A DNA stretch of 64,000 nt, from contig JANQNE010000007.1 in assembly GCA_028279725.1 (NCBI GenBank), positions 99,406-163,405 of the forward strand. The letters are read 5' to 3'. Origin of the DNA: Candidatus Nanoarchaeia archaeon. GTDB taxonomy: Archaea; Nanobdellota; Nanobdellia; Woesearchaeales; JANQNE01. Both the position numbers and the translations under genes were made by a program. The notes beneath the pieces were generated by a model, which saw only the letters and a program-made list of their open reading frames with translations, ran no database searches and had not been told where the DNA came from. Shown here in pieces: positions 4,058 through 28,666 of the stretch (position 1 is its first letter; each line of letters begins with the position of its first letter).

Positions 4058-5155
4058 TTATTGGAATTTCACGAAATTTAGCTTTGTTATATGTTTCTTT
4101 GCCTTCTCCACACCATCATTAAAATTCTTCATAAAATCATCCATCTTCTTGCATGAGATATTCTTGCACTCACCGCACAACAATTTCCCAGCTTTGCAAT
4201 TTTCATATATTTCCTGTAATTCTTTATCTTCCTCAACAAGATGCTGCTTCTGTAGTTCAAAATTCATGCATTCCTCAGGCCTTCCTCCTTTTTCTTTCTG
4301 CTCATCAACAGTATCTCTTCCTCCTGTCTTTGCTCTCTTTATCTTCTTCTTGACTTTCTCTATAGGCTCAGGCAATTCGATGCAGCTCTCTGGCTTTGAC
4401 TTTGACATCTTTAACCCTCCATCTAATGAAGGGGTATATTTATGATAAAGTCCTGAAGGCAGGAAAAACTTATACTTCTCCTTTGTCCTTCTTGCAACAT
4501 CCCTAGTCAGCCTAATGTGGGGATCCTGATCAACACCGACAGGTATTATCCCTGGCATCCTCTCTTCCATCTGAGGATACAATATATCTCCAACCTGGGT
4601 CATAGCTGCCATTATTCTGCTTGGATCGGCGCTTCCATAAACAGCCTTAAACTCATTCAGTGTGATTTTCCTCGCAAACTCATAAGCAAGATGTATCACA
4701 TCTTTATTCTCCGACTGGAAATAGAATGTGGTCTTCTTAGGGTCTAGTCCTAATGCAATATATGCTGGAATATGAAAATTCAAAGCCCTTCTCTGCGCTT
4801 CTTCTAATGTAACTCCTCTTGTGCATGCTGATTCAAGATCAGCTATTAATATGAACGCATCTCCTCCTCTCTCCTGAAAATATCTTATATTCTCTACAAC
4901 CATCTTGTTTCCAAGATGTATCTTCTCTCCAGAAGGCATTATTCCGCTCAAGACATAGAATCTTTTCTTGTTCTTTATTGCTTTTGATATGGGTTCAAGA
5001 TCTCTTCCGCTAAAAACAACCCCTCTTCTCATTATCTTGTTCGGCTTAGGAAATGTCTTAGCTCCAAAAGTCTCCAACCCAAAATCTTTTACGATCTTTT
5101 CATAATCTTCAACTAATTCGCTTCCCCATGGGTCTATAATCTTTGCCATATGCAA
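4058..5155 (-). CDS. trpS: Tryptophanyl-tRNA synthetase of the archaeal/eukaryal type, with a C-terminal four-cysteine motif that is putatively Fe-S.
   Basis: Class I HIGH-like PSGEKIHLGN. KMSKS motif. GVDQDPHIRLTRDVA is the TrpRS-type DQDP. The C-terminal C-x23-C-x6-C-x2-C resembles the [4Fe-4S] motif reported for some TrpRS enzymes. Confidence 0.75.
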   Translation of the reverse strand: MHMAKIIDPWGSELVEDYEKIVKDFGLETFGAKTFPKPNKIMRRGVVFSGRDLEPISKAIKNKKRFYVLSGIMPSGEKIHLGNKMVVENIRYFQERGGDAFILIADLESACTRGVTLEEAQRRALNFHIPAYIALGLDPKKTTFYFQSENKDVIHLAYEFARKITLNEFKAVYGSADPSRIMAAMTQVGDILYPQMEERMPGIIPVGVDQDPHIRLTRDVARRTKEKYKFFLPSGLYHKYTPSLDGGLKMSKSKPESCIELPEPIEKVKKKIKRAKTGGRDTVDEQKEKGGRPEECMNFELQKQHLVEEDKELQEIYENCKAGKLLCGECKNISCKKMDDFMKNFNDGVEKAKKHITKLNFVKFQ

Positions 5156-5244: not shown

Positions 5245-6198
5245 ATGAATATCGCAATAACAGGTTCTAACGGGTATGTGGGAAATTTCCTAGTTGAATA
5301 CTTCTCTAAAAAAGGAAATAATGTGATTGGATTAGATATTGCATCCATGGACCGCCAAAAAACATACAAAAACTTCAAGTTTGTAAAGTGTGATGTAAGG
5401 AATAAAGCACTGGTTAAAAAAACATTTGAAAAAGAGAAAATAACGCATATATTCCACCTGGCATATCTTATGAGTCCGCAACACAACAGAAAATTTGAGT
5501 TTGATGTTGATGTTAATGGTTCAAAAAATGTCTTCGAAGCTGCAAATGAGGTAAAGACAGTAAAACAATTCATACATTTCAGTTCTGCTAGCATCTATGG
5601 TGGCTGGCCATACAATCCGTTATGGATAGTGGAAAAAAGTCCAAGAAACCCGAGAGATTGGGTCTATGCGCAGAATAAGAAGATTGTTGAAGACTATTAT
5701 TTCAATTTCAAAAAAAGAAAAGACCTTAAGCTTGTTAACTTTAGGATGTGTACTGCTGTCGGCCCTTCTTATTACAAAGGTGGTGGTGTCGTAAAGACGT
5801 TATCAGGCCCTATCGGGCTTCTATTAAATGGAAAAGACACACTATTACAGTTCATCCATGAAGATGATGTAAATAAGATAGTTGAACTTACAGTAAAAAA
5901 GAAGATAGAAGGAGTATTCAATCTTGCTCCTGATTCATACTCAATAACTAAAGAGCTAAATCCAAATCCAAAGAAGATCTTTATCCCGTTCCCAAAGATA
6001 CTTTTCAAACTGATAGTATCTATCCTATGGTATACAAGAATAGCTCCTATCTCACCAACTTCAGTCAATTTAGTTGCGCATGGGGTTGTTGTTTCACCAA
6101 AAAAACTAATGAAAGCATTAGATTACAGGTTCAAATATTCTACAAAAGAGGCTTTTTTTGACGCTGTTAAAAAGAGGAAGAAAAATAAGACTTTATGA
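5245..6198 (+). CDS. NAD-dependent epimerase/dehydratase family protein.
   Basis: N-terminal Rossmann motif ITGSNGYVGNFL. 317 aa. Confidence 0.65.
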   Translation: MNIAITGSNGYVGNFLVEYFSKKGNNVIGLDIASMDRQKTYKNFKFVKCDVRNKALVKKTFEKEKITHIFHLAYLMSPQHNRKFEFDVDVNGSKNVFEAANEVKTVKQFIHFSSASIYGGWPYNPLWIVEKSPRNPRDWVYAQNKKIVEDYYFNFKKRKDLKLVNFRMCTAVGPSYYKGGGVVKTLSGPIGLLLNGKDTLLQFIHEDDVNKIVELTVKKKIEGVFNLAPDSYSITKELNPNPKKIFIPFPKILFKLIVSILWYTRIAPISPTSVNLVAHGVVVSPKKLMKALDYRFKYSTKEAFFDAVKKRKKNKTL

Positions 6199-7196
6199 AA
6201 AAGAAGATAGATTTCTCAGATGGATGGCATCCTACAAAAGAGGGGTATGTTGAATGGTGGTACTTTACATTAATTTGTGAAGATGGCTGCTATATTTCAG
6301 GGGTTTTAGCTATAAAAGACAAGACACCTCACGTCTGGCTTTCTATAAATAGTGAAGCAGGTAAGCCAATATATGTTAACAATACGCATGCATTTAAGGA
6401 TTTCAAAGCTTCAAGAAGATCATGTAATGTAAAAATTAAGAACAGCTACATAAAAGAGCATGGAAAAGATATCAAGATCAAAGTAAAAGAAGGGAATATT
6501 GACCTATGTGTTGATATCAAGAGGATTGTCACCTGGAGGGATAATAAGATCAGTGGTAATGTTAACAAGAAAGAAAAAGCTATGTGGATTGTTCCCTGCC
6601 TAAAAGGAGATTTCATAGGATATCTTAAGATAGGAAACAGGAAACATAAGATGAAAGGTCTTGCATTCCATGACCATGTCTGGAACAATATCAAGACAAC
6701 AACAGGATTGGCAAACTTTAATCAGTGGTATTGGGGCATTGCTCTAAGCAGAGACTTTGCATGCCTTTTTGTCTGTGTCAGATTCAAGAGAAGGATCTTC
6801 AAATTCTTATGTTTTGAAGAAAATGGAAAAGTGATGTCTTCTAACGATGAGATCAAAGAAAAGGATTTTAAGATAGAGACTGATGGAAAATTCCCTCCGA
6901 AAAATATTGATATCTTCTTAAAAGGTGAAAAATTTGTTGAAATCAAGCTGAAAAAAGAACATAAGATCCCTTTCATAAGTAAAAATCCTCTCGCAAATAC
7001 AATCTTAGAGAATGTTGTAGGCATATCAAAAGTCCATCTTAGCGGAAATTTCAAGAACACGAAAGAGCGCGGAAGGAGTTTTGTAGAGATGCTTAGGTTC
7101 CAACTAATGCCTCGACTACCCCGAAAGCTGCCTCTTTCCTTGAAGGAAAGACTGCAATCTGTATTTTCACGTGGAAACAATTCCCGGAATCAATGA
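6195..7196 (+). CDS. Hypothetical protein, possibly CrtC/AttH-like of the carotenoid 1,2-hydratase / lipocalin-fold hydrolase family.
   Basis: N-terminal GYVEWWYFT resembles the EWWY motif of the CrtC/AttH family. This identification is weak. Confidence 0.35.
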   Translation: MKKKIDFSDGWHPTKEGYVEWWYFTLICEDGCYISGVLAIKDKTPHVWLSINSEAGKPIYVNNTHAFKDFKASRRSCNVKIKNSYIKEHGKDIKIKVKEGNIDLCVDIKRIVTWRDNKISGNVNKKEKAMWIVPCLKGDFIGYLKIGNRKHKMKGLAFHDHVWNNIKTTTGLANFNQWYWGIALSRDFACLFVCVRFKRRIFKFLCFEENGKVMSSNDEIKEKDFKIETDGKFPPKNIDIFLKGEKFVEIKLKKEHKIPFISKNPLANTILENVVGISKVHLSGNFKNTKERGRSFVEMLRFQLMPRLPRKLPLSLKERLQSVFSRGNNSRNQ

Positions 7197-7542
7197 TCCT
7201 AAACTCATCATTAAGCAGTTTCTCTTTATCTAACCTTATGAAAAAATTACAGTCATCATCAACTCTGCTTTCTTTCTGTCTTATCAACATATTCTTCTGA
7301 ACTTCATCAAATTTAGAGAAAAAACTGTCTAAAAAAGCATTAACATTTCTGTCTTTATTCAGAAGAACAGTATAGATTATTATCTCCTTTTCGTTAAAAC
7401 CCTGAGCTTTCTTCTCTTCAATCTTTATCTTTTCTTTCTCAAGGTCTAAAGGGATCAAAGACACTAACTTCTCCTTTATCCTTTCCCTGTCCTCTCCTTC
7501 ATTTGCAAAAACACTTATTTTTACAGAATGCGCTATTTTCAT
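7093..7542 (-). CDS. UPF0201-like small RNA-binding protein (COG1325-type), tentative.
   Basis: 149 aa. The length and composition resemble the archaeal UPF0201 family. It overlaps the 3' end of the convergent gene by about 100 nt. Confidence 0.4.
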   Translation of the reverse strand: MKIAHSVKISVFANEGEDRERIKEKLVSLIPLDLEKEKIKIEEKKAQGFNEKEIIIYTVLLNKDRNVNAFLDSFFSKFDEVQKNMLIRQKESRVDDDCNFFIRLDKEKLLNDEFRIIDSGNCFHVKIQIAVFPSRKEAAFGVVEALVGT

Positions 7543-7589
7543 AATAAAATGATAACAATAAATTTATATAAGCTTTACGTTTTATATTA

Positions 7590-8495
7590 TTGATGAAGCA
7601 TACATTAAAGATTACACTTATACTGATCTTATTCTTCCTGATTACACAGGTTGTAGGGCTATCTATAATAAACAGTTATATCGACCACAAAACATCAGTT
7701 GAAACAGGAAAATCAACATTCAAATCATTACCAGGTGGCCTAGAACGTCCCCAGGTTGAAGAAGAAACTTCTTATATTCCGATATTTGCTGCAATAATTG
7801 TGGGGACTCTGCTGATATTGTTGATAATCAAGATGAAAAAAGTAAGATTATGGAAATTTTGGTTCTTCTTATCTGTCTTATTGTGCCTCACAGTTGCACT
7901 TGCAGCTTTTTTCCAAAGTATATATGCTTTCATTGCAGCATTGCTCTTATCATTACTAAAAGTATTAAGGCCAAACATCTACATACATAACCTAACTGAA
8001 ATCTTCATCTATGGTGGACTTGCAGCGATCTTTGTTCCTATCATCAGCTTTAATTCGGTCATTGTCCTTCTGCTATTGATATCAATCTATGATATGTTCG
8101 CAGTTTGGCAGAGTAAACATATGGTCAAGCTTGCTAAATTCCAGACAAATTCTAGATTATTTGCAGGTCTGCTTATACCTTATTCATTACCAAAAAAAGC
8201 TAAGAAAACAGGAAAGACTAAGATGGTAAAGGTTAAAGCAAACAACGCAATCCTTGGCGGAGGAGATATAGGCTTCCCATTAATCTTCGCAGGTGTTGTC
8301 ATGAAAAACCTCATGCTTCAAGAACCAATGATGACAGCATTCCTAAAGACACTGATCATCCCATTAATAGTAAGCTTCGCACTTCTATATCTTTTAGTAA
8401 AAGCAGAAAAAGACAAGTTCTACCCGGCAATGCCCTTCCTATCTATTGGATGTCTGGCTGGATATGGCGTTTTGACATTAATTGCTTTATTATAG
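7590..8495 (+). CDS. Presenilin / signal-peptide-peptidase-like intramembrane aspartyl protease, GxGD family A22.
   Basis: Multi-TM protein. YD motif SIYDMFAVW. GxGD-type motif LGGGDIGFP. C-terminal PAL-like FYPAMPF. Confidence 0.6.
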   Translation: MMKHTLKITLILILFFLITQVVGLSIINSYIDHKTSVETGKSTFKSLPGGLERPQVEEETSYIPIFAAIIVGTLLILLIIKMKKVRLWKFWFFLSVLLCLTVALAAFFQSIYAFIAALLLSLLKVLRPNIYIHNLTEIFIYGGLAAIFVPIISFNSVIVLLLLISIYDMFAVWQSKHMVKLAKFQTNSRLFAGLLIPYSLPKKAKKTGKTKMVKVKANNAILGGGDIGFPLIFAGVVMKNLMLQEPMMTAFLKTLIIPLIVSFALLYLLVKAEKDKFYPAMPFLSIGCLAGYGVLTLIALL

Positions 8496-20656: not shown

Positions 20657-21769
20657 TTAAAAGGTTTTCGATAAAACCACAACCTTATACTCCTGCTTTC
20701 CACTCCAGACTAATCTCTCTGATTCTATCTTAAACTTCTTCCTCAAAGCAGTTTTCTTGAAAAGCTCGATATTCTTTGAAATTGCAACCATTTTCCCTTT
20801 CAAAATAAATTCAGCATTGTGAAAAAACTCATCATAAAGTTTCTGTATAACTGTCGGTCCAGCATGCTGTGTTATTATCGGTGGATTTGTTACAATAAGA
20901 TCAACTGCCCCTTTGTCAAGTTTAGCATCCAGCCATTTTGCTTCGATCCTAGAAAAATTTATCAGCTTCTCAACACCAGCGATCTTTGCATTGTTCTTTG
21001 CAGACTTGATATATCTAAGCTGGTCGTCAAAACCATTCAGTTTAATCTCCTTGCTCTTGTCAGTTTCCTTATCAATCTTATCAAAGAATTTGTCAAAATC
21101 AAACTTCTCAAAACATTTGAATCCTAAAAAAGCAAATTTATCCTTTTGATAAAAATTAACCGGAAACTTTGACTTATGCAGAGCAGCTTCAATTATTAAA
21201 GTTCCACTTCCGCAAAAAGGATCCAATACATTTTCTCCTTCAGCCAATCTATACACGCAATAAGCGACAGTTCCCTTCAGTGCATAAGGATGCTGAAAGA
21301 TCTTATACTGCCTTTTGCTCAGATCAATTCCAGAAAAATCAACTCCAAGATATGCTTTTCCTCCTGAGATATTGACAAAAAAAGTTACATCAGGATCTTC
21401 CAGTTTTACTTTAGCTTTTTTCCTGTCTAAGATAAATCCTCCAACTCTGGATTCAACATCTTGTGTTGATTCATCTCCATCATGCATGCATCTTACACAA
21501 AAAGTTGTATCCTTCCCAAACCATTCATCAATATTTATCTTCTCAACTGATTTCTTTATATCATCAACATCAGAATAATCTACTGTATCAATCAGATAAA
21601 GAACCTTAACAACAGATTGAGCTTTATAACAAAGAAGACAAAGATCTTCCAGCTTACAGTCAAATTCAACACAGCCATCAAGAACTTTCCCCTTAGCTCC
21701 TATCAGCTCAAAAATTTCTTTAGAACAAATATCTTCAAAACCCTTATGAGTTATAGCTAATCCTTTCAT
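20657..21769 (-). CDS. THUMP-domain class I SAM-dependent RNA methyltransferase (Trm14/TrmN-like tRNA m2G methyltransferase).
   Basis: SAM-binding [15 protein letters not shown]. Catalytic DLIVTNPP. N-terminal THUMP-like region. There is a 4-nt overlap with gyrA. Confidence 0.6.
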
Positions 21770-24594
21770 CTCCTTTTCATAGCTTTCTTTCTAAGCTCGT
21801 CTATTGAAGGAACATAGTCTGGCGTTGGCTTTGGATTGAAATCCTCTTCTTTATCTTCTTCAGCAGGTTTTTCCTTTACTTCCTCTGATGATGCTTCTTG
21901 AACTGGCTCTTTCTCTTCAACTTCTTTTCGTGGTTCTTCCTCTTTTTTTTCTTCAACAGGTTCTTCTGGCTGAATCTCTTCCTGCTTTGAATCTTCAACT
22001 GGCTGCTCTTCCTTTACTTCAGGCTGCAGTTCTTCATCATGTCCATTTCCATTCTCTTCTCCAGTTTCCTCTTTTTTTATCGCTTTATTCAGTTCATCTT
22101 CACTTTCAACAACAATCTTTGCAGCTGCAGCAACCTTGTCATCTCCGCCCATCTTCATAAGCCTTACTCCTTGGGTATTTCTTCCTATCTTCGATATTCC
22201 ATCAACTCTGGTTCTGATAACAATTCCCTGCCTGCTCATAAATATAATCTCGTTATCAGGATAGACTGCTTTAACTTCAACAACCTTTCCGTTCCTTTCG
22301 CTGCACTGTATGTTGATTACACCGACCCCACCACGACCGATAACTCTGTATTCAGCCATCGATGTCTGTTTTCCATAACCATTCTCTGTAATAGTAAGCA
22401 ACCTCTTCTTATCAGTTGCAATATCCATACCAATAACTGCATCCTTTCCTTTCAGATTTATTCCTTTTACACCTTTTCCAGTCCTTCCTATTGGCCTTAC
22501 ATCTTTTTCATCAAACCTAATTGCCATTCCATTTTCTGTAGCAAGAACAATATGCCTGCTTCCATCAGTAAGCTTAGCTGTTATCAGATCATCTCCTTCA
22601 TCTAAAGTTATAGCTCTTATTCCTCCTCTTCTGGGTTTCTTAAAATTAGAAAGTGGGGTCTTCTTAATTATACCCTGTTTAGTCGCTAACATCAAGAAGT
22701 GTTCTTCATCAAATTCTTTTACAGGAATAAACGCAGTAACACTTTCTTCCTTATCTAGTTCAACTAAATTAACTATTGGTCTTCCTTTAGCCTGTCTGCT
22801 TCCCTCAGGAATATTATAGACTTTAAGCCAATGTACATTTCCTTTGTCCGTAAATACTAAGATATAACTATGGGTTGACGCAACAAATATTTCCTCTACA
22901 AAATCTTCTTCTTTTGTTCCTGTTGCTATAACACCCTTTCCTCCTCTTGCCTGTAATTTGTAAGTGTTCATAGGAACTCTCTTAACATAACCAGCATGTG
23001 TAACAGTGACGACCATCTTTTCTTCTTCAATAAGATCTTCAAAATCAATCTCAACATCTTGTCCGCCTTCCATGATCTGTGTCTTTCTTTCATCGCCATA
23101 CTTTTCTTTCATATCCTCAAGTTCTTTTTTGATTATTTCCAGTATCTTTTGCTCAGAAGCTAAGATCGCTTTTAATTCTTCAATTAATTCCAACAATCCT
23201 TTATGTTCTTCTTTGATTTTATCTTGCTCTAAGTTAGTTAACTTCTGTAATTTCATATCTAGGATAGCCATCGCCTGCTTTTCACTTAATTCATACTTGG
23301 CGATTAATCCATCTCTTGCTTCAACTGTTGATTTAGATTGTTTGATCAGCTGGATCGCATTGTCGATATCATTCAAAGCTATGATTATACCTTCAAGAAT
23401 ATGCGCTCTTTCCTCAGCCTTAACCAACTCATACTTTGTTCTCCTTCTTACAACTTCTTTTCTGTGATCTATAAAGTTCTGTATTATTTCTTTAAGGTTC
23501 AGTACTTTTGGTTCTCCATCAACCAAAGCCAACAATATCATACCTACAGTTTCCTGCATTCTTGTATGTTTATACAATTGATTAAGAACAATGTCAGGAT
23601 TTGCATCCTGCCTTAATTCAATAACTATCCTCATTCCTTCTCTGTCGCTTTCATCTCTAAGATCAGATATTCCTTGTATCTTTTTATCTCTTACAAGATC
23701 AGCAATCTGTTCTATAAGGTGGGCTTTATTCACCATAAATGGAATCTCAGAAACAATTATCCTCTGCTTATTCTTCATCTCTTCAACATTTGTCCTTGCT
23801 CTTACCAAAACTTTTCCTTTTCCTTTAGAATAAGCACTAAGGATTCCGCCAGTTCCGTAAATAATTCCTCCAGTAGGAAAATCAGGACCTTTGACATTCT
23901 CAACAAGATCCATCGCAGTTACATCAGGATTGTCAATAACTCTTATCGTTCCGTCAATAACCTCGGTCATGTTATGTGGTGGAATTGTCGTAGCCATGCC
24001 TACTGCAATACCACTGCTTCCATTAATCAAAAGATTTGGAATCTTTGAAGGAAGAACAGAAGGCTCTTTCAGGCTATTGTCAAAATTAGGGACAAAATCA
24101 ACAGTGTCCTTATCAATATCAACTAACATCTCTTCAGCAATTCTAGATAGTCTTGCCTCAGTATACCTCATTGCAGCTGCATTATCTCCATCAATTGAAC
24201 CAAAATTTCCCTGACCGTCAACTAAAGTATATCTTAAAGAAAAATCCTGAGCCATCCTGACCATGCTGTCATAGACAGCTGTATCACCATGCGGATGATA
24301 CTTTCCCAGCACCTCTCCAACAATCCTTGCAGATTTCTTAAAAGGCTTGTTATGCATCATTCCCATGCTGTGCATCGCAAAAAGAATTCTTCTGTGAACT
24401 GGTTTTAATCCATCTCTTACATCTGGCAAAGCTCTGCCAACTATTACACTCATAGAATAGTCCAGATAGCTGCTCTTCATCTCATCTTCCACTACCCTTT
24501 GGACTACTTTTTCTTCTGTATTTTGGCCTTTATTTTGCTCTGGTTGGCTATTTTCCTGGCCTTCAATTTCCTTATTTTCAGGGTTTTCAGACAT
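21766..24594 (-). CDS. gyrA: DNA gyrase subunit A with a long acidic C-terminal tail.
   Basis: [25 protein letters not shown]. The active-site Tyr region and a beta-pinwheel CTD. The last roughly 120 aa are an E/K/P-rich low-complexity tail. Confidence 0.9.
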
Positions 24595-24851
24595 CTTCTC
24601 CTCGATAGTTGTTAATGGAGGTTTATTTATAAATCTTTTGTTCGTAAAATGGCAATACAGAGTCTGTAAAGCCAGAATTATAGCATTTCAGCTATCTGAA
24701 TTTGGCCACTTCAGACCCCTCAAAATGCCCAAAAATTAGCTATTTCACTACTCTACAGAGACTACAAAACGAAAGGTTTAAATACTTGCTTTGCTTTACT
24801 TTATTTAGAGAGAGGTGACTAAGCTTCTTTCTAAAAAAAGGTGGTTAAAAA

Positions 24852-25133
24852 ATGAAAATCAAATTCGAAAGTGCAAAAGGTGGAAGAGGAATAGACGCAT
24901 GTGCTTCTACTATGACCGAAAGATACGGACTGCAATATGCATTACATAAACTAGAGATGCAAAATCCTTCATTAAGCAGCATAAGGCCTACTGATGTGGC
25001 GGACATTCTAGGCGGTGGAGATGGATATGTTCCAGCTGACAAAATAGGGACTGATTTTGAAACAAACCAACCGATATATCAATTTAGAAATTATGAATTA
25101 ATCACCAGACCTACAATAGAAAAAGGTGAATAA
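24852..25133 (+). CDS. Hypothetical protein, island gene 1.
   Basis: GGTGG RBS. No recognisable domain. Confidence 0.3.
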   Translation: MKIKFESAKGGRGIDACASTMTERYGLQYALHKLEMQNPSLSSIRPTDVADILGGGDGYVPADKIGTDFETNQPIYQFRNYELITRPTIEKGE

Positions 25134-25136
25134 AAA

Positions 25137-25733
25137 ATGATAAGAAGATTAGCGAACAACAGAATTGTCAGAGGACTTGTTACATTTCCTATCATATTCT
25201 CAAGCGGTTGTATAGATGAACTTGTAGATGAAGCTGCCAAAAGTAGAATCAAGAAAATAAAAAAAATCAGTAACAACATCAAACGAGAAGTAGATGATCT
25301 CGGTTATTTTAATGATTCTCTTGTAAACTCTGTGAAAGAAGATGCAAAAAATGCATATGGACAGATGAATTCTGTATTAAATACACTAAGGTATCAAAGA
25401 GAGTATGGCAATAATACTGGAATTCCAGTTCAGCTAAGCCCCGGAGATATAGTTAATTTAGGAAATGGAGGGGTGTTTGACCACAGATACATGAATAGAT
25501 TAAGTAGAGAATCACAAAGAGAAATACAAGTGCAATGTGATGGTTCTGTAAAGATCCTTGAAGGACTGTCTAAAGGAGTTCGTGTAAAACCTAGATGGAT
25601 CGCAAGCGCGATAAAGGGAAGAGGCAACGAACCATATGAGATTCACATTAATGGGGAAACAGCAAAATACAACGGAGAGGCATATGTCATGTCAAGAAAA
25701 AAGTTGAATAACTCAAGATTGTTAAGAAATTAA
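25137..25733 (+). CDS. Hypothetical protein, island gene 2, with a signal-peptide/lipobox-like N-terminus.
   Basis: N-terminus MIRRLANNRIVRGLVTFPIIFSSGC. Preceded by the AAAAAGGTGAATAAAAAATGATA cassette. Confidence 0.35.
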   Translation: MIRRLANNRIVRGLVTFPIIFSSGCIDELVDEAAKSRIKKIKKISNNIKREVDDLGYFNDSLVNSVKEDAKNAYGQMNSVLNTLRYQREYGNNTGIPVQLSPGDIVNLGNGGVFDHRYMNRLSRESQREIQVQCDGSVKILEGLSKGVRVKPRWIASAIKGRGNEPYEIHINGETAKYNGEAYVMSRKKLNNSRLLRN

Positions 25734-25749
25734 AAAAGGTGAATAAAAA

Positions 25750-25845
25750 ATGATACGCACAATAAAAAAGATTTTTGCTGCATTAGTAAAACTTAGTCCA
25801 ATCACAATTGAGATTGAAAGAGAAAATTATGTTTTACTGAGGTGA
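25750..25845 (+). CDS. Possible 31-aa micro-ORF (MIRTIKKIFAALVKLSPITIEIERENYVLLR).
   Basis: It is not in the ORF track, which cuts off at 60 aa. It is preceded by an exact 23-nt copy of the RBS/start cassette of island gene 2. Confidence 0.15.
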   Translation: MIRTIKKIFAALVKLSPITIEIERENYVLLR

Positions 25846-25851
25846 ATAAAA

Positions 25852-26118
25852 ATGCCAGATGATAATTTACCAAATCCAGAAGAACATTTCAAAAAACCAG
25901 AATCACCAGAAGAATACAAGCCTGGAAAATTAGGAGATGCAAAAAGATACGGAAGTCTTCCTCCAGCAAAAAGTTATAGTCAAGAAACTAATTACCAAAG
26001 CAAGCAATTCACAGATGATCTTGCTATAGCAATGAAATTGAGTGATCCGATTGAATTCATGACCAAAATGGGCATGTTCGCTCCAGAAGGTGTAGGAAAT
26101 CCAAGAAAAGGTGAGTAA
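25852..26118 (+). CDS. Hypothetical protein, island gene 3.
   Basis: GAGGTGA RBS. Pro/Glu-rich N-terminus. Confidence 0.3.
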   Translation: MPDDNLPNPEEHFKKPESPEEYKPGKLGDAKRYGSLPPAKSYSQETNYQSKQFTDDLAIAMKLSDPIEFMTKMGMFAPEGVGNPRKGE

Positions 26119-26120
26119 AG

Positions 26121-26423
26121 ATGGAAAACATACAAACAATCAAGATAGGAGATGGTTACCTGGATCTTAAAAATCCAGAATTATGTGATGTTAACTATAA
26201 CGGAAAGATATATCATGGTTGGTACAAGAAGATTGACAAGGCTGGACGTAGATGTTATTTTCTTCCAGAAGACGTCGATTCAAGAAATCCGATCTCAAGA
26301 GACAACATAATTGACATGAAAATAGAACTTAATAAAATAAAAACTGTAGAAGACGCAATAAACTCGAATCTGTTTGCAAAAAACTACAGGGCATTTATCA
26401 GCCCGGAAGATGCAGGAAAATGA
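26121..26423 (+). CDS. Hypothetical protein, island gene 4.
   Basis: GGTGA RBS. 2-nt spacing from the previous gene. Confidence 0.3.
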   Translation: MENIQTIKIGDGYLDLKNPELCDVNYNGKIYHGWYKKIDKAGRRCYFLPEDVDSRNPISRDNIIDMKIELNKIKTVEDAINSNLFAKNYRAFISPEDAGK

Positions 26424-26707
26424 TTCAACAAAATCAACAAACATATGGACACTGGTACCATGACATTGCAGAAAAGATCCCTAGCATTGACGCTGAAATT
26501 GAAGACTGTCAAAGATGTCTAGGTATGATAAGATCTGGAGACAGGCTTAGCCTCATGAAGAGTGGAAGAAGTATAGAAACAAGGGATTATCTGGTCTACA
26601 TGGATATGTTGACTAACTTAAAAATAGCTCTTACTCGATCTAAAAACTTAGTTCCAGCAATGGATGAAAACCCAACTCTAAACACAGAATATGTTTTTGA
26701 AAAATGA
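26420..26707 (+). CDS. Hypothetical protein, island gene 5.
   Basis: 4-nt overlap with the previous gene. Confidence 0.3.
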   Translation: MIQQNQQTYGHWYHDIAEKIPSIDAEIEDCQRCLGMIRSGDRLSLMKSGRSIETRDYLVYMDMLTNLKIALTRSKNLVPAMDENPTLNTEYVFEK

Positions 26708-26771
26708 TTCTCGAAATCTTAACTTAAAACAGAAACCTATTTAAAATTCTCACAAACTCCAGCTTATTAAA

Positions 26772-27398
26772 ATGAAAAATATATTATTGATTGGAGGGAT
26801 GGCATCAGGAAAGACTACACTAGTTGAAGCTCTGATGAAAGCAGATCCTTCCATAAATGACATAAATATGTCAAACTATGCTGTAAAGATTCCGATGACT
26901 TTAATCTCTAAAGATCATCCAGATCTAATGTCATACCCTAAAAATATCTATATTGATACAATCCTGAAAAATCAAACAGTTGATGAAGATTTATTCCGTT
27001 ACAAAAGAAGAGAGATGGATGAATTCTGTCAGAAAGTTAGAGATGTTTATGGAGAGACAATACTCGCAGAACTTGGTTTTTTAGCATCAGACATACACAA
27101 GCAGAATGTCATAGATAATATTGCAAAAGTTCCAAGCGTGAAATACCTTAAAGACCAAGGATTCTATGTTGTTGGTCTTGAATGCAGCTTTGAAGATCAG
27201 ATTCAAAGAAGACTGGAAAATCCAAAAAGTATTGATCATCCCAGCAGATATAAATTAGAAGAACAGATAATGAGAACAAACGCATTCTTCGAGATTAGAG
27301 ACACTACGAAACTTGCAGATAAAGTATATGATACAAGAAAGATTAGATCAGACTCCTCTCAAGTAGTCCAAGAAATATTAAGAGATGCAAGATTATAA
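26772..27398 (+). CDS. P-loop NTPase of the nucleotide/nucleoside-kinase-like fold.
   Basis: Walker A LIGGMASGKTTLVEAL at the N-terminus. 208 aa. The family cannot be assigned by eye. Candidates are dNMP kinase, CoaE-like or zeta-like. Confidence 0.45.
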   Translation: MKNILLIGGMASGKTTLVEALMKADPSINDINMSNYAVKIPMTLISKDHPDLMSYPKNIYIDTILKNQTVDEDLFRYKRREMDEFCQKVRDVYGETILAELGFLASDIHKQNVIDNIAKVPSVKYLKDQGFYVVGLECSFEDQIQRRLENPKSIDHPSRYKLEEQIMRTNAFFEIRDTTKLADKVYDTRKIRSDSSQVVQEILRDARL

Positions 27399-27535
27399 TT
27401 TCTTAACAATATTATCCCTAACCTTAAAACTTCTCCCGCAATAAACACATCTTTTGCTTTTCCCGACAATATATCCATCCATGGAATTATATTTCATATT
27501 ATTCTTGCACTTTGGACATTTTAGAAGTAGCATTC

Positions 27536-28666
27536 TTACGCAGCTCTTTGGTCTTCTTCAGTATCTTCAAAATCTTCTGGTTTTCCTTGAGCTAGATTTT
27601 CCATATCACTATGTTCTTGTTCTTCTTTAGTATAATTCTTTTCCGTAAACTCTCCTTCTTCCTCTTCTGACTTCTCTTCCCTTTCTTCATGAGTTTCTTC
27701 AGGTTCTTCCTTCGGTTCCTCTTCCTCTGCTTTTTCTTCCTTAGGTTCTTCCTGCTTTGGAGGGACATAACCTTCAGGATGGATCATCTCTTCAATCCTT
27801 TTCTCGACTTCAGGAGCAACTTCCTCAGTTTCAACTTTCGCAACGATCTCATCAGCTTTCTTCTCTTTATCTTCCTGCCTCTTATTGTCTTCTTTTCCTT
27901 CTGTGATTATCTCAGGCTGCAATTTCTCTTTTATCTCTTTAACTTCTTTATTCCTTTCCTCTTCATCTTCAGGTTTTTCTTCATAAGTTTCTAATTTAGT
28001 CTTAGCTCCAAAATCATCAACAATATCAATCTCTTTCTCCAATTGTTCAGCCTTCTCTTTCTCCTCTCTCATCTTCTGTTCCATCTCTTCTTTTTTAGCT
28101 TTGGCCTCTTCAACTTTCTCTTCTGTATCTTTTATCTCTCCTTCTCTTTTTTCTATAGCATCCCTTACCTCTTCAGGAACAGCCTGCCTGAAAGTTTCCC
28201 TTGTCTGTTCACCTTTAGGCAGATCAAAATAATCAAAGAACTTCTGGGTCAGCTTTATCGACCTTGTCCTTCCGTAGACTTCTCTTGCGATAAAACCAGC
28301 AGCCTCCAGCTCTTTCATATGCTCATAAGCTTTATTATTTCTTATCTTGATGACATCAGCCTGTAATATTGGATATTTCCAGGCAATGACTGCTAATGTT
28401 TCCATTATAGACTTATCAAGTTCAGTTTCAGAGACTATATTCTGCACAATTCCTAAATATTTCTCCCTTACAGCTAATTTCCACGTATCTCCCTCGTTGT
28501 CAAGCATCAGGGAGCTATCTTCATCGCCATATTTCTCCTTTAATTCCTCAAGGCCTTTCTTTACCTGAGAAAGTTTAAGGTTTGTCAGCTGTACGATCTC
28601 ATCCTCTCTCATCTTTCTTCCGGATGAAAACAGCAAAGATTCTACTTTATTTGATTCTTCACTCAT
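27536..28666 (-). CDS. scpB: Segregation and condensation protein B (ScpB) with a long acidic K/E-rich tail.
   Basis: N-terminus SLLFSSGRKMREDEIVQLTNL with tandem winged-helix regions. About 200 aa of E/K low complexity at the C-terminus. Confidence 0.65.
   Translation of the reverse strand: MSEESNKVESLLFSSGRKMREDEIVQLTNLKLSQVKKGLEELKEKYGDEDSSLMLDNEGDTWKLAVREKYLGIVQNIVSETELDKSIMETLAVIAWKYPILQADVIKIRNNKAYEHMKELEAAGFIAREVYGRTRSIKLTQKFFDYFDLPKGEQTRETFRQAVPEEVRDAIEKREGEIKDTEEKVEEAKAKKEEMEQKMREEKEKAEQLEKEIDIVDDFGAKTKLETYEEKPEDEEERNKEVKEIKEKLQPEIITEGKEDNKRQEDKEKKADEIVAKVETEEVAPEVEKRIEEMIHPEGYVPPKQEEPKEEKAEEEEPKEEPEETHEEREEKSEEEEGEFTEKNYTKEEQEHSDMENLAQGKPEDFEDTEEDQRAA

Follow-up and report, generated by a model that had tools for sequence, protein, structure and literature searches.

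A putative accessory islet of small orphan genes between gyrA and scpB in a Woesearchaeota-like archaeon

What kind of unit is a tight row of small genes set, on the opposite strand, between two chromosome-maintenance genes of an archaeon? The row in question lies in a 64-kb stretch of DNA (hereafter the window, meaning the whole stretch analyzed; all coordinates are positions in it), where seven plus-strand open reading frames (ORF1 to ORF7) occupy 24852-27398 between gyrA and scpB, both on the minus strand. An earlier reading of the letters, called here the sequence-only reading, had listed these ORFs with their spacing, and our coordinates agree with it: the successive gaps from ORF1 to ORF5 are 3, 16, 6 and 2 nucleotides (nt), ORF5 and ORF6 overlap by 4 nt, and 64 nt separate ORF6 from ORF7. 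Our favored answer, held with moderate confidence, is that the stretch is a lineage-specific accessory islet, found in one subclade of Woesearchaeota-like DPANN archaea and placed, in reversed orientation, where the chromosome is prone to rearrangement. Its mildly unusual feature is a set of homogenized translation-initiation cassettes.

Whether the seven ORFs are genes at all was assessed with a three-periodic Markov model trained on 46 long ORFs elsewhere in the window, the coding signal being the log-likelihood ratio per nt of an ORF's own frame against the best other frame. The own frame ranks first of six in all seven cases, with a margin of 0.08 to 0.14 per nt; as controls, held-out chunks of true genes gave a mean of 0.113 (5th percentile 0.05), and spurious intragenic ORFs a mean of -0.16. 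The sequence-only reading had named a lack of coding signal as the finding that would speak against a gene island, and what we found is the opposite, all seven scoring as native coding sequence. The comparison of composition with the flanks that it had proposed was also run. Codon usage is native, and so is GC content, which at 34-35% in the islet does not deviate from the approximately 36% of the window; only the skews flip in the islet, which the strand switch leads one to expect. The seven ORFs are the following.

24852-25133, plus strand: ORF1, 93 amino acids (aa), acidic and soluble, orphan; coding signal 0.089 per nt
25137-25733, plus strand: ORF2, 198 aa, basic, orphan; coding signal 0.081
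25750-25845, plus strand: ORF3, 31 aa; coding signal 0.093; too short for homology tests
25852-26118, plus strand: ORF4, 88 aa, acidic and hydrophilic, from a two-member family
26121-26423, plus strand: ORF5, 100 aa, from a family common to all four islets compared below, with the motif ..IS.DD..N.KIELN..
26420-26707, plus strand: ORF6, 95 aa, orphan; starts within an ATGA shared with the stop of ORF5
26772-27398, plus strand: ORF7, 208 aa, P-loop nucleotide-kinase-like, from a rare, fast-evolving family

The evidence that this row is an accessory unit comes from its relatives. Eighty loci were gathered by scanning metagenomes for the N-terminal domain of ScpB, and the window proteins were then mapped onto them by tblastn; labels from L001 to L057 denote related loci used for comparison. 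A co-directional string of genes is widely conserved, encoding an LTD protein, an MJ0538-like protein, ScpB, (a zinc ribbon), gyrase subunit GyrA and a 370-aa protein, and its members next to the islet are as follows.

20657-21769: gene for the 370-aa protein, downstream of gyrA
21766-24594, minus strand: gyrA, flank of the islet
27393-27533, minus strand: zinc-ribbon gene, 46 aa, conserved; borders the insertion site on the ScpB side
27536-28666, minus strand: ScpB gene (Pfam SMC_ScpB, 4e-32)

The synteny of ScpB, (zinc ribbon) and gyrA was found in about 45 related metagenome loci. In 12 loci the gap from the zinc-ribbon gene to gyrA measures 12 to 140 nt, which leaves no islet there. Gaps of more than 1.5 kb with small genes on the opposite strand were found only in the window (2.9 kb), L002 (1.8 kb), L009 (1.6 kb) and L007 (2.1 kb); L002 is a close relative (79% DNA identity across gyrA), and the ScpB of L009 is 83% identical. 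The idea of an accessory unit, for which a survey of presence and absence in related genomes had been suggested, is borne out, since most relatives with the ScpB-gyrA synteny do without the islet, which is specific to one subclade. Other lineages carry different insertions at the same place: L025 has an FHA-domain gene, L013 an orphan of 185 aa, L023 ACT and UPF0210-like genes, and L032 and L008 yet other content. This makes the site downstream of the zinc-ribbon gene a general hotspot of rearrangement. Apart from the FHA domain in L025, the islet proteins of the relatives gave no Pfam family, and a literature search on variable islets in Woesearchaeota found nothing relevant.

The contents of the islets were compared by aligning all proteins against all, and by a hidden Markov model (HMM) search of every stop-to-stop segment in the fetched loci. 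All four islets contain an ORF5-family gene, L009 in the form of two paralogs and L002 as its first gene, and ORF5 matches the members in L009, L007 and L002 with blastp E values of 1e-10 to 1e-5; the family HMM found no members outside the four islets in the 80 ScpB-anchored loci, L001-L006 and the window. ORF4 and ORF7 recur, among the islets, only in L002, and no other cargo is related between them. Compared with the window, L002 has the ORF4 and ORF5 families in reverse order, and its counterpart of ORF4 is an 86-aa protein, 44% identical to it. Between the window and L002, the proportion of nonsynonymous differences (pN) and that of synonymous differences (pS) are 0.36 vs 0.79 for ORF4, and 0.28 vs 0.76 for ORF7. 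The nonsynonymous distances (dN) are 0.49 and 0.35, against 0.08 for each of gyrA and the zinc-ribbon gene, a four- to sixfold difference, the ratio to the synonymous distance (dN/dS) not being computable between these two loci, whose synonymous sites are saturated. Judged from these comparisons, ORF4, ORF5 and ORF7 are under purifying selection, which for ORF7 appears relaxed. In L009 (11166-11702, locus minus strand), an unrelated 178-aa orphan with no Pfam match takes the position of ORF7 beside the zinc-ribbon gene.

Beyond these loci, the small proteins find few partners. ORF1 to ORF6 have no family match in Pfam, NCBIfam, PHROG or PADLOC, and the earlier statement that they show no recognizable family holds for Pfam, NCBIfam and PHROG. 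An exhaustive HMMER search of 1.84e9 representatives returned ORF2 itself only. In a word-indexed search of 5.8e9 clusters, for which ORF1, ORF4, ORF5, ORF6 and the L002 homolog of ORF4 served as one alignment, ORF1, ORF5 and ORF6 matched only themselves, and the sole extra match of ORF4 was the L002 protein, itself part of the query alignment. As positive controls, the own entries of ORF1, ORF4, ORF5 and ORF6 were recovered, and that of ORF3 was not; this type of search is weak for fast-evolving proteins, and would miss the L002 homolog of ORF4 were it not in the query. All six small proteins are singleton 90% clusters from a single contig, the islet proteins have no paralogs elsewhere in the window, and the ORF5-family profile gave only chance-level matches against the PDB. 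Taken as they read, ORF1 to ORF6 are most likely small soluble accessory proteins, dispensable to the organism; ORF3 may be a micro-protein or a remnant.

The layout of ORF2 comprises a weak signal- or lipobox-like N-terminus, a predicted helical hairpin and then a beta-rich C-terminal half. The lipobox-like motif FPIIFSSGC pointed out in the sequence-only reading is there, and the N-terminus MIRRLANNRIVRGLVTFPIIFSSGC combines basic residues with SSGC; the part of that proposal that fares less well is the hydrophobic core, which is weak, the highest 19-residue Kyte-Doolittle score being only 1.18. ORF2 may be exported. Its AlphaFold2 (AF2) model from a single sequence has a predicted local distance difference test score (pLDDT) of 43.3, too poor for fold assignment.

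How are these genes joined to each other? Three of their start regions are nearly the same sequence.

24835-24857, plus strand: ORF1 leader cassette AAAAAGGTGGTTAAAAAATGAAA, 20/23 identical to the ORF2 and ORF3 cassettes
25120-25142, plus strand: cassette copy A, made of the last codons of ORF1 with TAA, GGTGA, a 7-nt A spacer and ATG-ATA of ORF2
25733-25755, plus strand: cassette copy B, identical to copy A; precedes ORF3

The 23-nt string AAAAAGGTGAATAAAAAATGATA is exact in copies A and B and has three mismatches at 24835, which makes three matches against 0.01 expected from shuffles. The exact repeat that the sequence-only reading had reported is thereby confirmed at both sites as non-random; the near copy that it had placed at 25838 is indeed a related cassette (that of ORF4), and another lies at 26106 (ORF5). 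Among the 2775 pairs of start contexts formed by 75 window genes, ORF2/ORF3 (23/23), ORF1/ORF2 and ORF1/ORF3 (20/23 each) come first, followed by a pair at 17/23. Because these three pairs outrank all other start contexts in the window, the likeness of the cassettes exceeds that which shared function produces in the rest of this genome. A strong Shine-Dalgarno sequence, (A)GGTGA or AGGTGG at 6-8 nt, precedes five of the seven islet genes vs 6/68 others (Fisher p = 5e-4). At the cassette junctions the stop codon of the preceding gene falls in the Shine-Dalgarno sequence or adjoins it, and ORF5/ORF6 have instead the ATGA overlap. The stop of ORF3 is the TGA of the next GGTGA, and ORF1 and ORF4 both end in ..KGE* because AAAGGTGARTAA is read in frame. 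The ORF1-ORF6 cistrons would then be translationally coupled, each junction offering a stop in or next to GGTGA, 6-7 A-rich bases and an ATG.

The exact repeats flank ORF2, a gene found nowhere else. ORF3 was considered as a decayed duplicate of the 5' end of ORF2 and rejected as such, no likeness extending past the cassette (protein p = 0.49, DNA p = 0.86). Independently of the window repeat, three successive and otherwise unrelated small genes in L007 (2836-3524, locus minus strand) start with TGAGGTGAATGAARATGAAC, extended (AATCC); these cassettes are sharply bounded, and the proteins begin with M(K)MNNP or MNGP. Two junctions in L009 are similar. That the first three cassettes of the window are nearly identical suggests a recent homogenization, through copying within the locus, gene conversion or recombination where the genes join, and not through gene duplication; outside these junctions the genes have no sequence in common. 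It is plausible that the short junctions act as joints, and they would be the probable sites, for the gain, loss and reordering of genes.

One further start deserves mention beside these. The start of ORF4 (25838-25862, AAAATGCCAGATGATA) and that of the first islet gene in L002 (3711-3740, AAAATGCCAGAGATA), which belongs to the ORF5 family, share 11 identical bases that cover the last bases of the spacer, the ATG and the next four bases; both proteins begin with Met-Pro. This is a weak hint that gene bodies were swapped behind a retained start.

Upstream of ORF1, the stretch between gyrA and the islet contains conserved signals, listed here with the one that precedes ORF7.

24596-24733, minus strand (gyrA sense): conserved non-coding element that abuts the gyrA TATA box on its upstream side, at the gyrA-side edge of the insertion site
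24766-24784, plus strand: putative promoter AAAACGAAAGGTTTAAATA for ORF1-ORF6, made of a transcription factor B recognition element (BRE) and a TATA box, in perfect archaeal consensus
26738-26747, plus strand: TATA-like box, ending 24 nt ahead of the ATG of ORF7

The pattern AAAACGAAAGGTTTAWATA, derived from the 24766-24784 site and its counterparts in relatives, has its sole exact match in the window at that site, and similar boxes precede other genes. The position of the BRE/TATA box is kept in L002, L009 and L007 according to the alignment, and in L013 and L025 by reading of the sequences; in the latter two it faces unrelated cargo. DNA homology with L002 runs from gyrA through the promoter, the leader, the Shine-Dalgarno sequence and the ATG, and ends at 24854. 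We propose that ORF1 to ORF6 form one operon, which would be transcribed from this promoter, divergently from gyrA. ORF7 is preceded by its own TATA-like box and has no Shine-Dalgarno sequence, which suggests a separate gene, probably on a leaderless transcript.

The element upstream of gyrA was found by nhmmer in L002, L009, L007, L010, L013, L019, L057, L025 and L017/18, with or without an islet; L001 gave a weak match (E 1e-3) before gyrB. The element measures about 90 to 130 nt and combines a palindrome-like GCyNNAATTyNNGC with the block CTGTATTGCCATTTTA; copies lie at 3474-3611 in L002, 12591-12732 in L009, 10921-11035 in L010, 1676-1793 in L013 and 9390-9492 in L001. A structured RNA was considered and set aside, there being no Rfam match and no RNAalifold consensus structure. 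The element is probably a DNA-level regulatory region common to gyrase genes.

A bolder version of the role of the junctions, which we rate as unlikely, would make the cassettes the recombination joints of a 'plug-in' platform, in which a conserved promoter and leader by the gyrase genes acquires, duplicates and swaps small genes. It is hinted at because the identity of the cassettes is an outlier with sharp boundaries and recurs as the triple cassette of L007, and because the homology with L002 breaks at the first ATG and the ORF4/ORF5 order is reversed. By analogy, such a platform could be an archaeal, recombinase-free counterpart of the shuffling by promoter early stem-loops (PeSL) in phage T4, or of integron arrays.

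What, then, is ORF7? The Walker A motif noted earlier, LIGGMASGKTT, is present, and its part GGMASGKTT (residues 8-16) is invariant in all four homologs. Residues 4-167 match Pfam AAA_18 (27.9 bits for a cut-off of 29.4, E 3.5e-6). The best PDB matches of a four-member profile are the UPF0200 structures of SSO1041, 3LW7 (E 4.2e-4) and 3H0K (E 4.8e-4), with an alignment of query residues 69-203 to chain residues 37-173, plus the P-loop, that covers most of the fold; R146 of ORF7 is invariant and falls where the alignment meets the R-rich segment of SSO1041. NCBIfam PRK08356 matches a partial region (E 0.006). An AF2 model built from four sequences (pLDDT 51.7, predicted template modeling score 0.54) is too poor for fold assignment, and Foldseek with this poor model gave weak matches (E >=0.012, TM approximately 0.35), the best of which are all nucleotide or shikimate kinases, 3H0K included. 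In the PDB, shikimate kinases match the ORF7 profile at the P-loop only. ORF7 was also considered as a CoaE and rejected, since Pfam CoaE (E 0.007) covers only residues 6-30 and the PDB chains of CoaE match only residues 4-30. The phage deoxynucleoside monophosphate (dNMP) kinase family phrog_139 matches weakly over residues 1-185 (E 0.001, 19.5 bits). Of the sequence-only description of this gene, 'P-loop kinase-like' stands; the closer assignment to CoaE finds no support, and that to dNMP kinases has the weak phrog_139 match only. ORF7 is best described as a predicted, divergent P-loop kinase of UPF0200/AAA_18 type. A literature search on UPF0200/SSO1041 found no established function.

The ORF7 family is very small. 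It makes up 4 clusters among 5.8e9, that of the window included, and in a genome scan the only species-representative genome with a relative was a Candidatus Woesearchaeota metagenome-assembled genome, which carries a truncated copy; a metagenome scan with the kinase family gave no match. Relatives are known at five loci (L001, L002, L004/L005 and L006). All pairwise identities are 50-54%, irrespective of how related the hosts are, and this uniformity arises because the unconstrained half of the protein is saturated. The homolog is divergent from gyrA in L002 and from gyrB in L001; it adjoins an unrelated gene in L006, and a 41-aa gene fragment in L004.

Several points weigh against the lineage-specific islet as we have drawn it. 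The coding signal of ORF6, 0.115 against the other frames, is -0.006 against background, and selection on ORF1, ORF2, ORF3 and ORF6 is not demonstrable because they have no homolog in the databases searched. The 23-nt identity could also be maintained by selection for an optimal initiation region, with no recombination. The TATA-like box of ORF7 also fits a BRE/TATA on the minus strand (with one mismatch), and it is not conserved in L002. The promoter, the operon structure and the coupling are themselves readings of sequence. Finally, the comparison draws on only four islet loci and six kinase loci, so that the statistics of presence, absence and context are thin.

Among the alternatives, the one that survives best, though distinctly unlikely in our view, ties the unit to gyrase: ORF7 or the small proteins would modulate gyrase or chromosome condensation, or else divergent transcription would matter by itself, through supercoiling coupling to the gyrA/gyrB promoter, and the cargo would for the most part be free to turn over. 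That ORF7-family genes diverge from gyrA (window, L002) and from gyrB (L001) fits this explanation, as do the like element before gyrA and, weakly, before the L001 gyrB; these amount, however, to two independent gyrase contexts only, the L006 neighbor being unrelated and the L004 neighbor a 41-aa fragment. The divergent consensus promoter beside this element is kept in six lineages with unrelated cargo, including the FHA-domain protein of L025, and the flanks ScpB and gyrA are chromosome-maintenance genes. Yet consensus promoters may resemble one another by convergence, a divergent unit upstream of gyrA is missing in most relatives, and the purifying selection on ORF4, ORF5 and ORF7 means that the cargo is not irrelevant. 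Moreover, no likeness to the known gyrase modulators (YacG, pentapeptide-repeat proteins, CcdB/ParE) was found in Pfam and NCBIfam.

A decayed integrated virus, plasmid or other mobile element is an improbable source of the islet. Its style is virus-like, with short, packed, Shine-Dalgarno-coupled orphans opposite core flanks; it is missing from most relatives, and ORF7 has its weak likeness to phrog_139 (E 0.001). Against these stand the lack of an integrase, att repeats, a tRNA target or hallmark genes in the islet or the surrounding 10.8-kb contig, the lack of any PHROG match for ORF1 to ORF6 and of relatives of ORF1, ORF2, ORF4, ORF5, ORF6 and the ORF7 family in IMG/VR viral contigs, and the native codon usage and GC content. 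The islet is, besides, old and vertically inherited in the subclade, because promoter and leader are kept with relatives whose synonymous sites are saturated. The virus-derived origin offered in the sequence-only reading accordingly finds no support.

To the same low degree of probability, ORF1, ORF2, ORF3 and ORF6 could be young proto-genes or decaying pseudogene fragments, open by chance in an AT-rich region. Turnover at the locus is rapid, these four have no homolog in the databases searched, ORF3 is only 31 aa long and ORF6 scores -0.006 against background. But chance would have to account for an own frame that is best of six in every one of them, at the level of real genes, for a strong Shine-Dalgarno sequence or a coupled ATGA start before each, and for 1.9 kb with no gaps or frame disruptions; the homology negatives, for their part, are limited by the word-indexed search.

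The least probable explanation makes the seven genes an undescribed defense, toxin-antitoxin or host-interaction system, with the P-loop protein as effector or toxin and the small proteins as partners: DPANN archaea depend on hosts, variable islets of small orphans between core genes are typical of such systems, the proteins evolve fast and ORF2 may be exported, but PADLOC gave only a weak mad8 match of ORF7 (E 0.004, P-loop only) and none for ORF1 to ORF6, Pfam gave no Zeta-toxin, AbiE or other toxin family, and the parts do not travel together, since ORF7 occurs in L001, L004 and L006 with no relatives of ORF1 to ORF6, the L009 and L007 islets have no ORF7, and only ORF4 (at one locus) and ORF5 (at three) recur. 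Nothing in these comparisons indicates that the seven genes act as one system, and the earlier suggestion that this was the place for an undescribed system is not supported.

Some features of the surroundings are recorded apart from the argument. The window contains archaeal RNase P RNA and archaeal SRP RNA, so that its host is an archaeon, probably a Woesearchaeota-like one. The zinc-ribbon gene, absent from the sequence-only reading, sits between ORF7 and scpB and overlaps the stop of ORF7 by 6 nt. Its product (CxxC...CxxC) is encoded immediately downstream of ScpB in about 35 related loci, at 50-80% identity by tblastn; it has no Pfam match above threshold, and the exact sequence is absent from the protein collection. 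Gene callers probably miss this gene or place its start elsewhere. A 21-nt inverted repeat, 90% complementary and with the core ATTGTTAAGAAATTA, has one arm in the 3' end of ORF2 (25715-25735) and the other where the stops of ORF7 and the zinc-ribbon gene converge (27393-27413); it may be the trace of an old inversion or recombination, or due to chance. In L007 an interruption of about 1.3 kb splits the gyrA homolog (4196-4576 and 5876-7969) at the point that follows residue 145 in the window protein; its position and size fit an intein or another insertion.

With the accessory islet as the preferred reading, the locus shows, in small and clean form, that reduced DPANN genomes still reserve a rapidly changing slot for orphan genes by essential chromosome-maintenance genes. 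Three undescribed protein families are defined by it, the ORF4-like, the ORF5-like and the rare UPF0200-like kinase that recurs beside gyrase genes, and it raises the idea, open to test, that genes are shuffled at joints formed by short translation-initiation cassettes. Its value is mainly that of a lead for the comparative genomics of Woesearchaeota, and it settles no long-standing question.

How does the locus compare with systems already known? ORF7 shares with UPF0200/SSO1041 and AAA_18 an N-terminal Walker A, a length of about 200 residues and a profile match over most of the fold; it differs by its own invariant motifs IPMTL, DNI and GLECSFE, by a score below the AAA_18 cut-off, and by a family that is very rare and fast-evolving. 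Translationally coupled operons resemble the islet in having stops in or beside GGTGA, 6-7 nt spacers and the ATGA overlap, whereas three successive islet junctions are 20-23/23 identical, and the other starts of the window reach at most 17/23.

Phage hyperplastic regions carry start-proximal cassettes, such as the PeSL of the T4 type and the start-associated sequences of Cluster K mycobacteriophages. Like these, the islet has a short near-identical sequence before the starts of unrelated orphan genes, and a break of homology at the junction; unlike them, it lies on an archaeal chromosome, and its cassettes span 20-25 nt with no promoter or stem-loop. In the islet, exchange by way of the cassettes is a hypothesis. 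Integron arrays share with the islet one upstream promoter and a row of small, unrelated, promoterless genes in a single orientation. They differ from it by their integrase, of which there is none in the islet or the surrounding 10.8 kb, and by their attC sites: no attC-like repeats were found between the islet genes, where spacers of 2-16 nt are too short for attC and the 64-nt spacer has no attC-like inverted core sites.

The strain-variable islets found at chromosomal hotspots also have conserved core flanks and variable content, and are absent from most relatives. Compared with these, the islet of the window is only 2.5 kb long, has no mobility genes and a native composition, and is old, as the saturated synonymous sites between its carriers attest. 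The locus is a new case of this familiar kind, in which a chromosomal hotspot carries a small and variable set of orphan genes, together with a rare kinase family.

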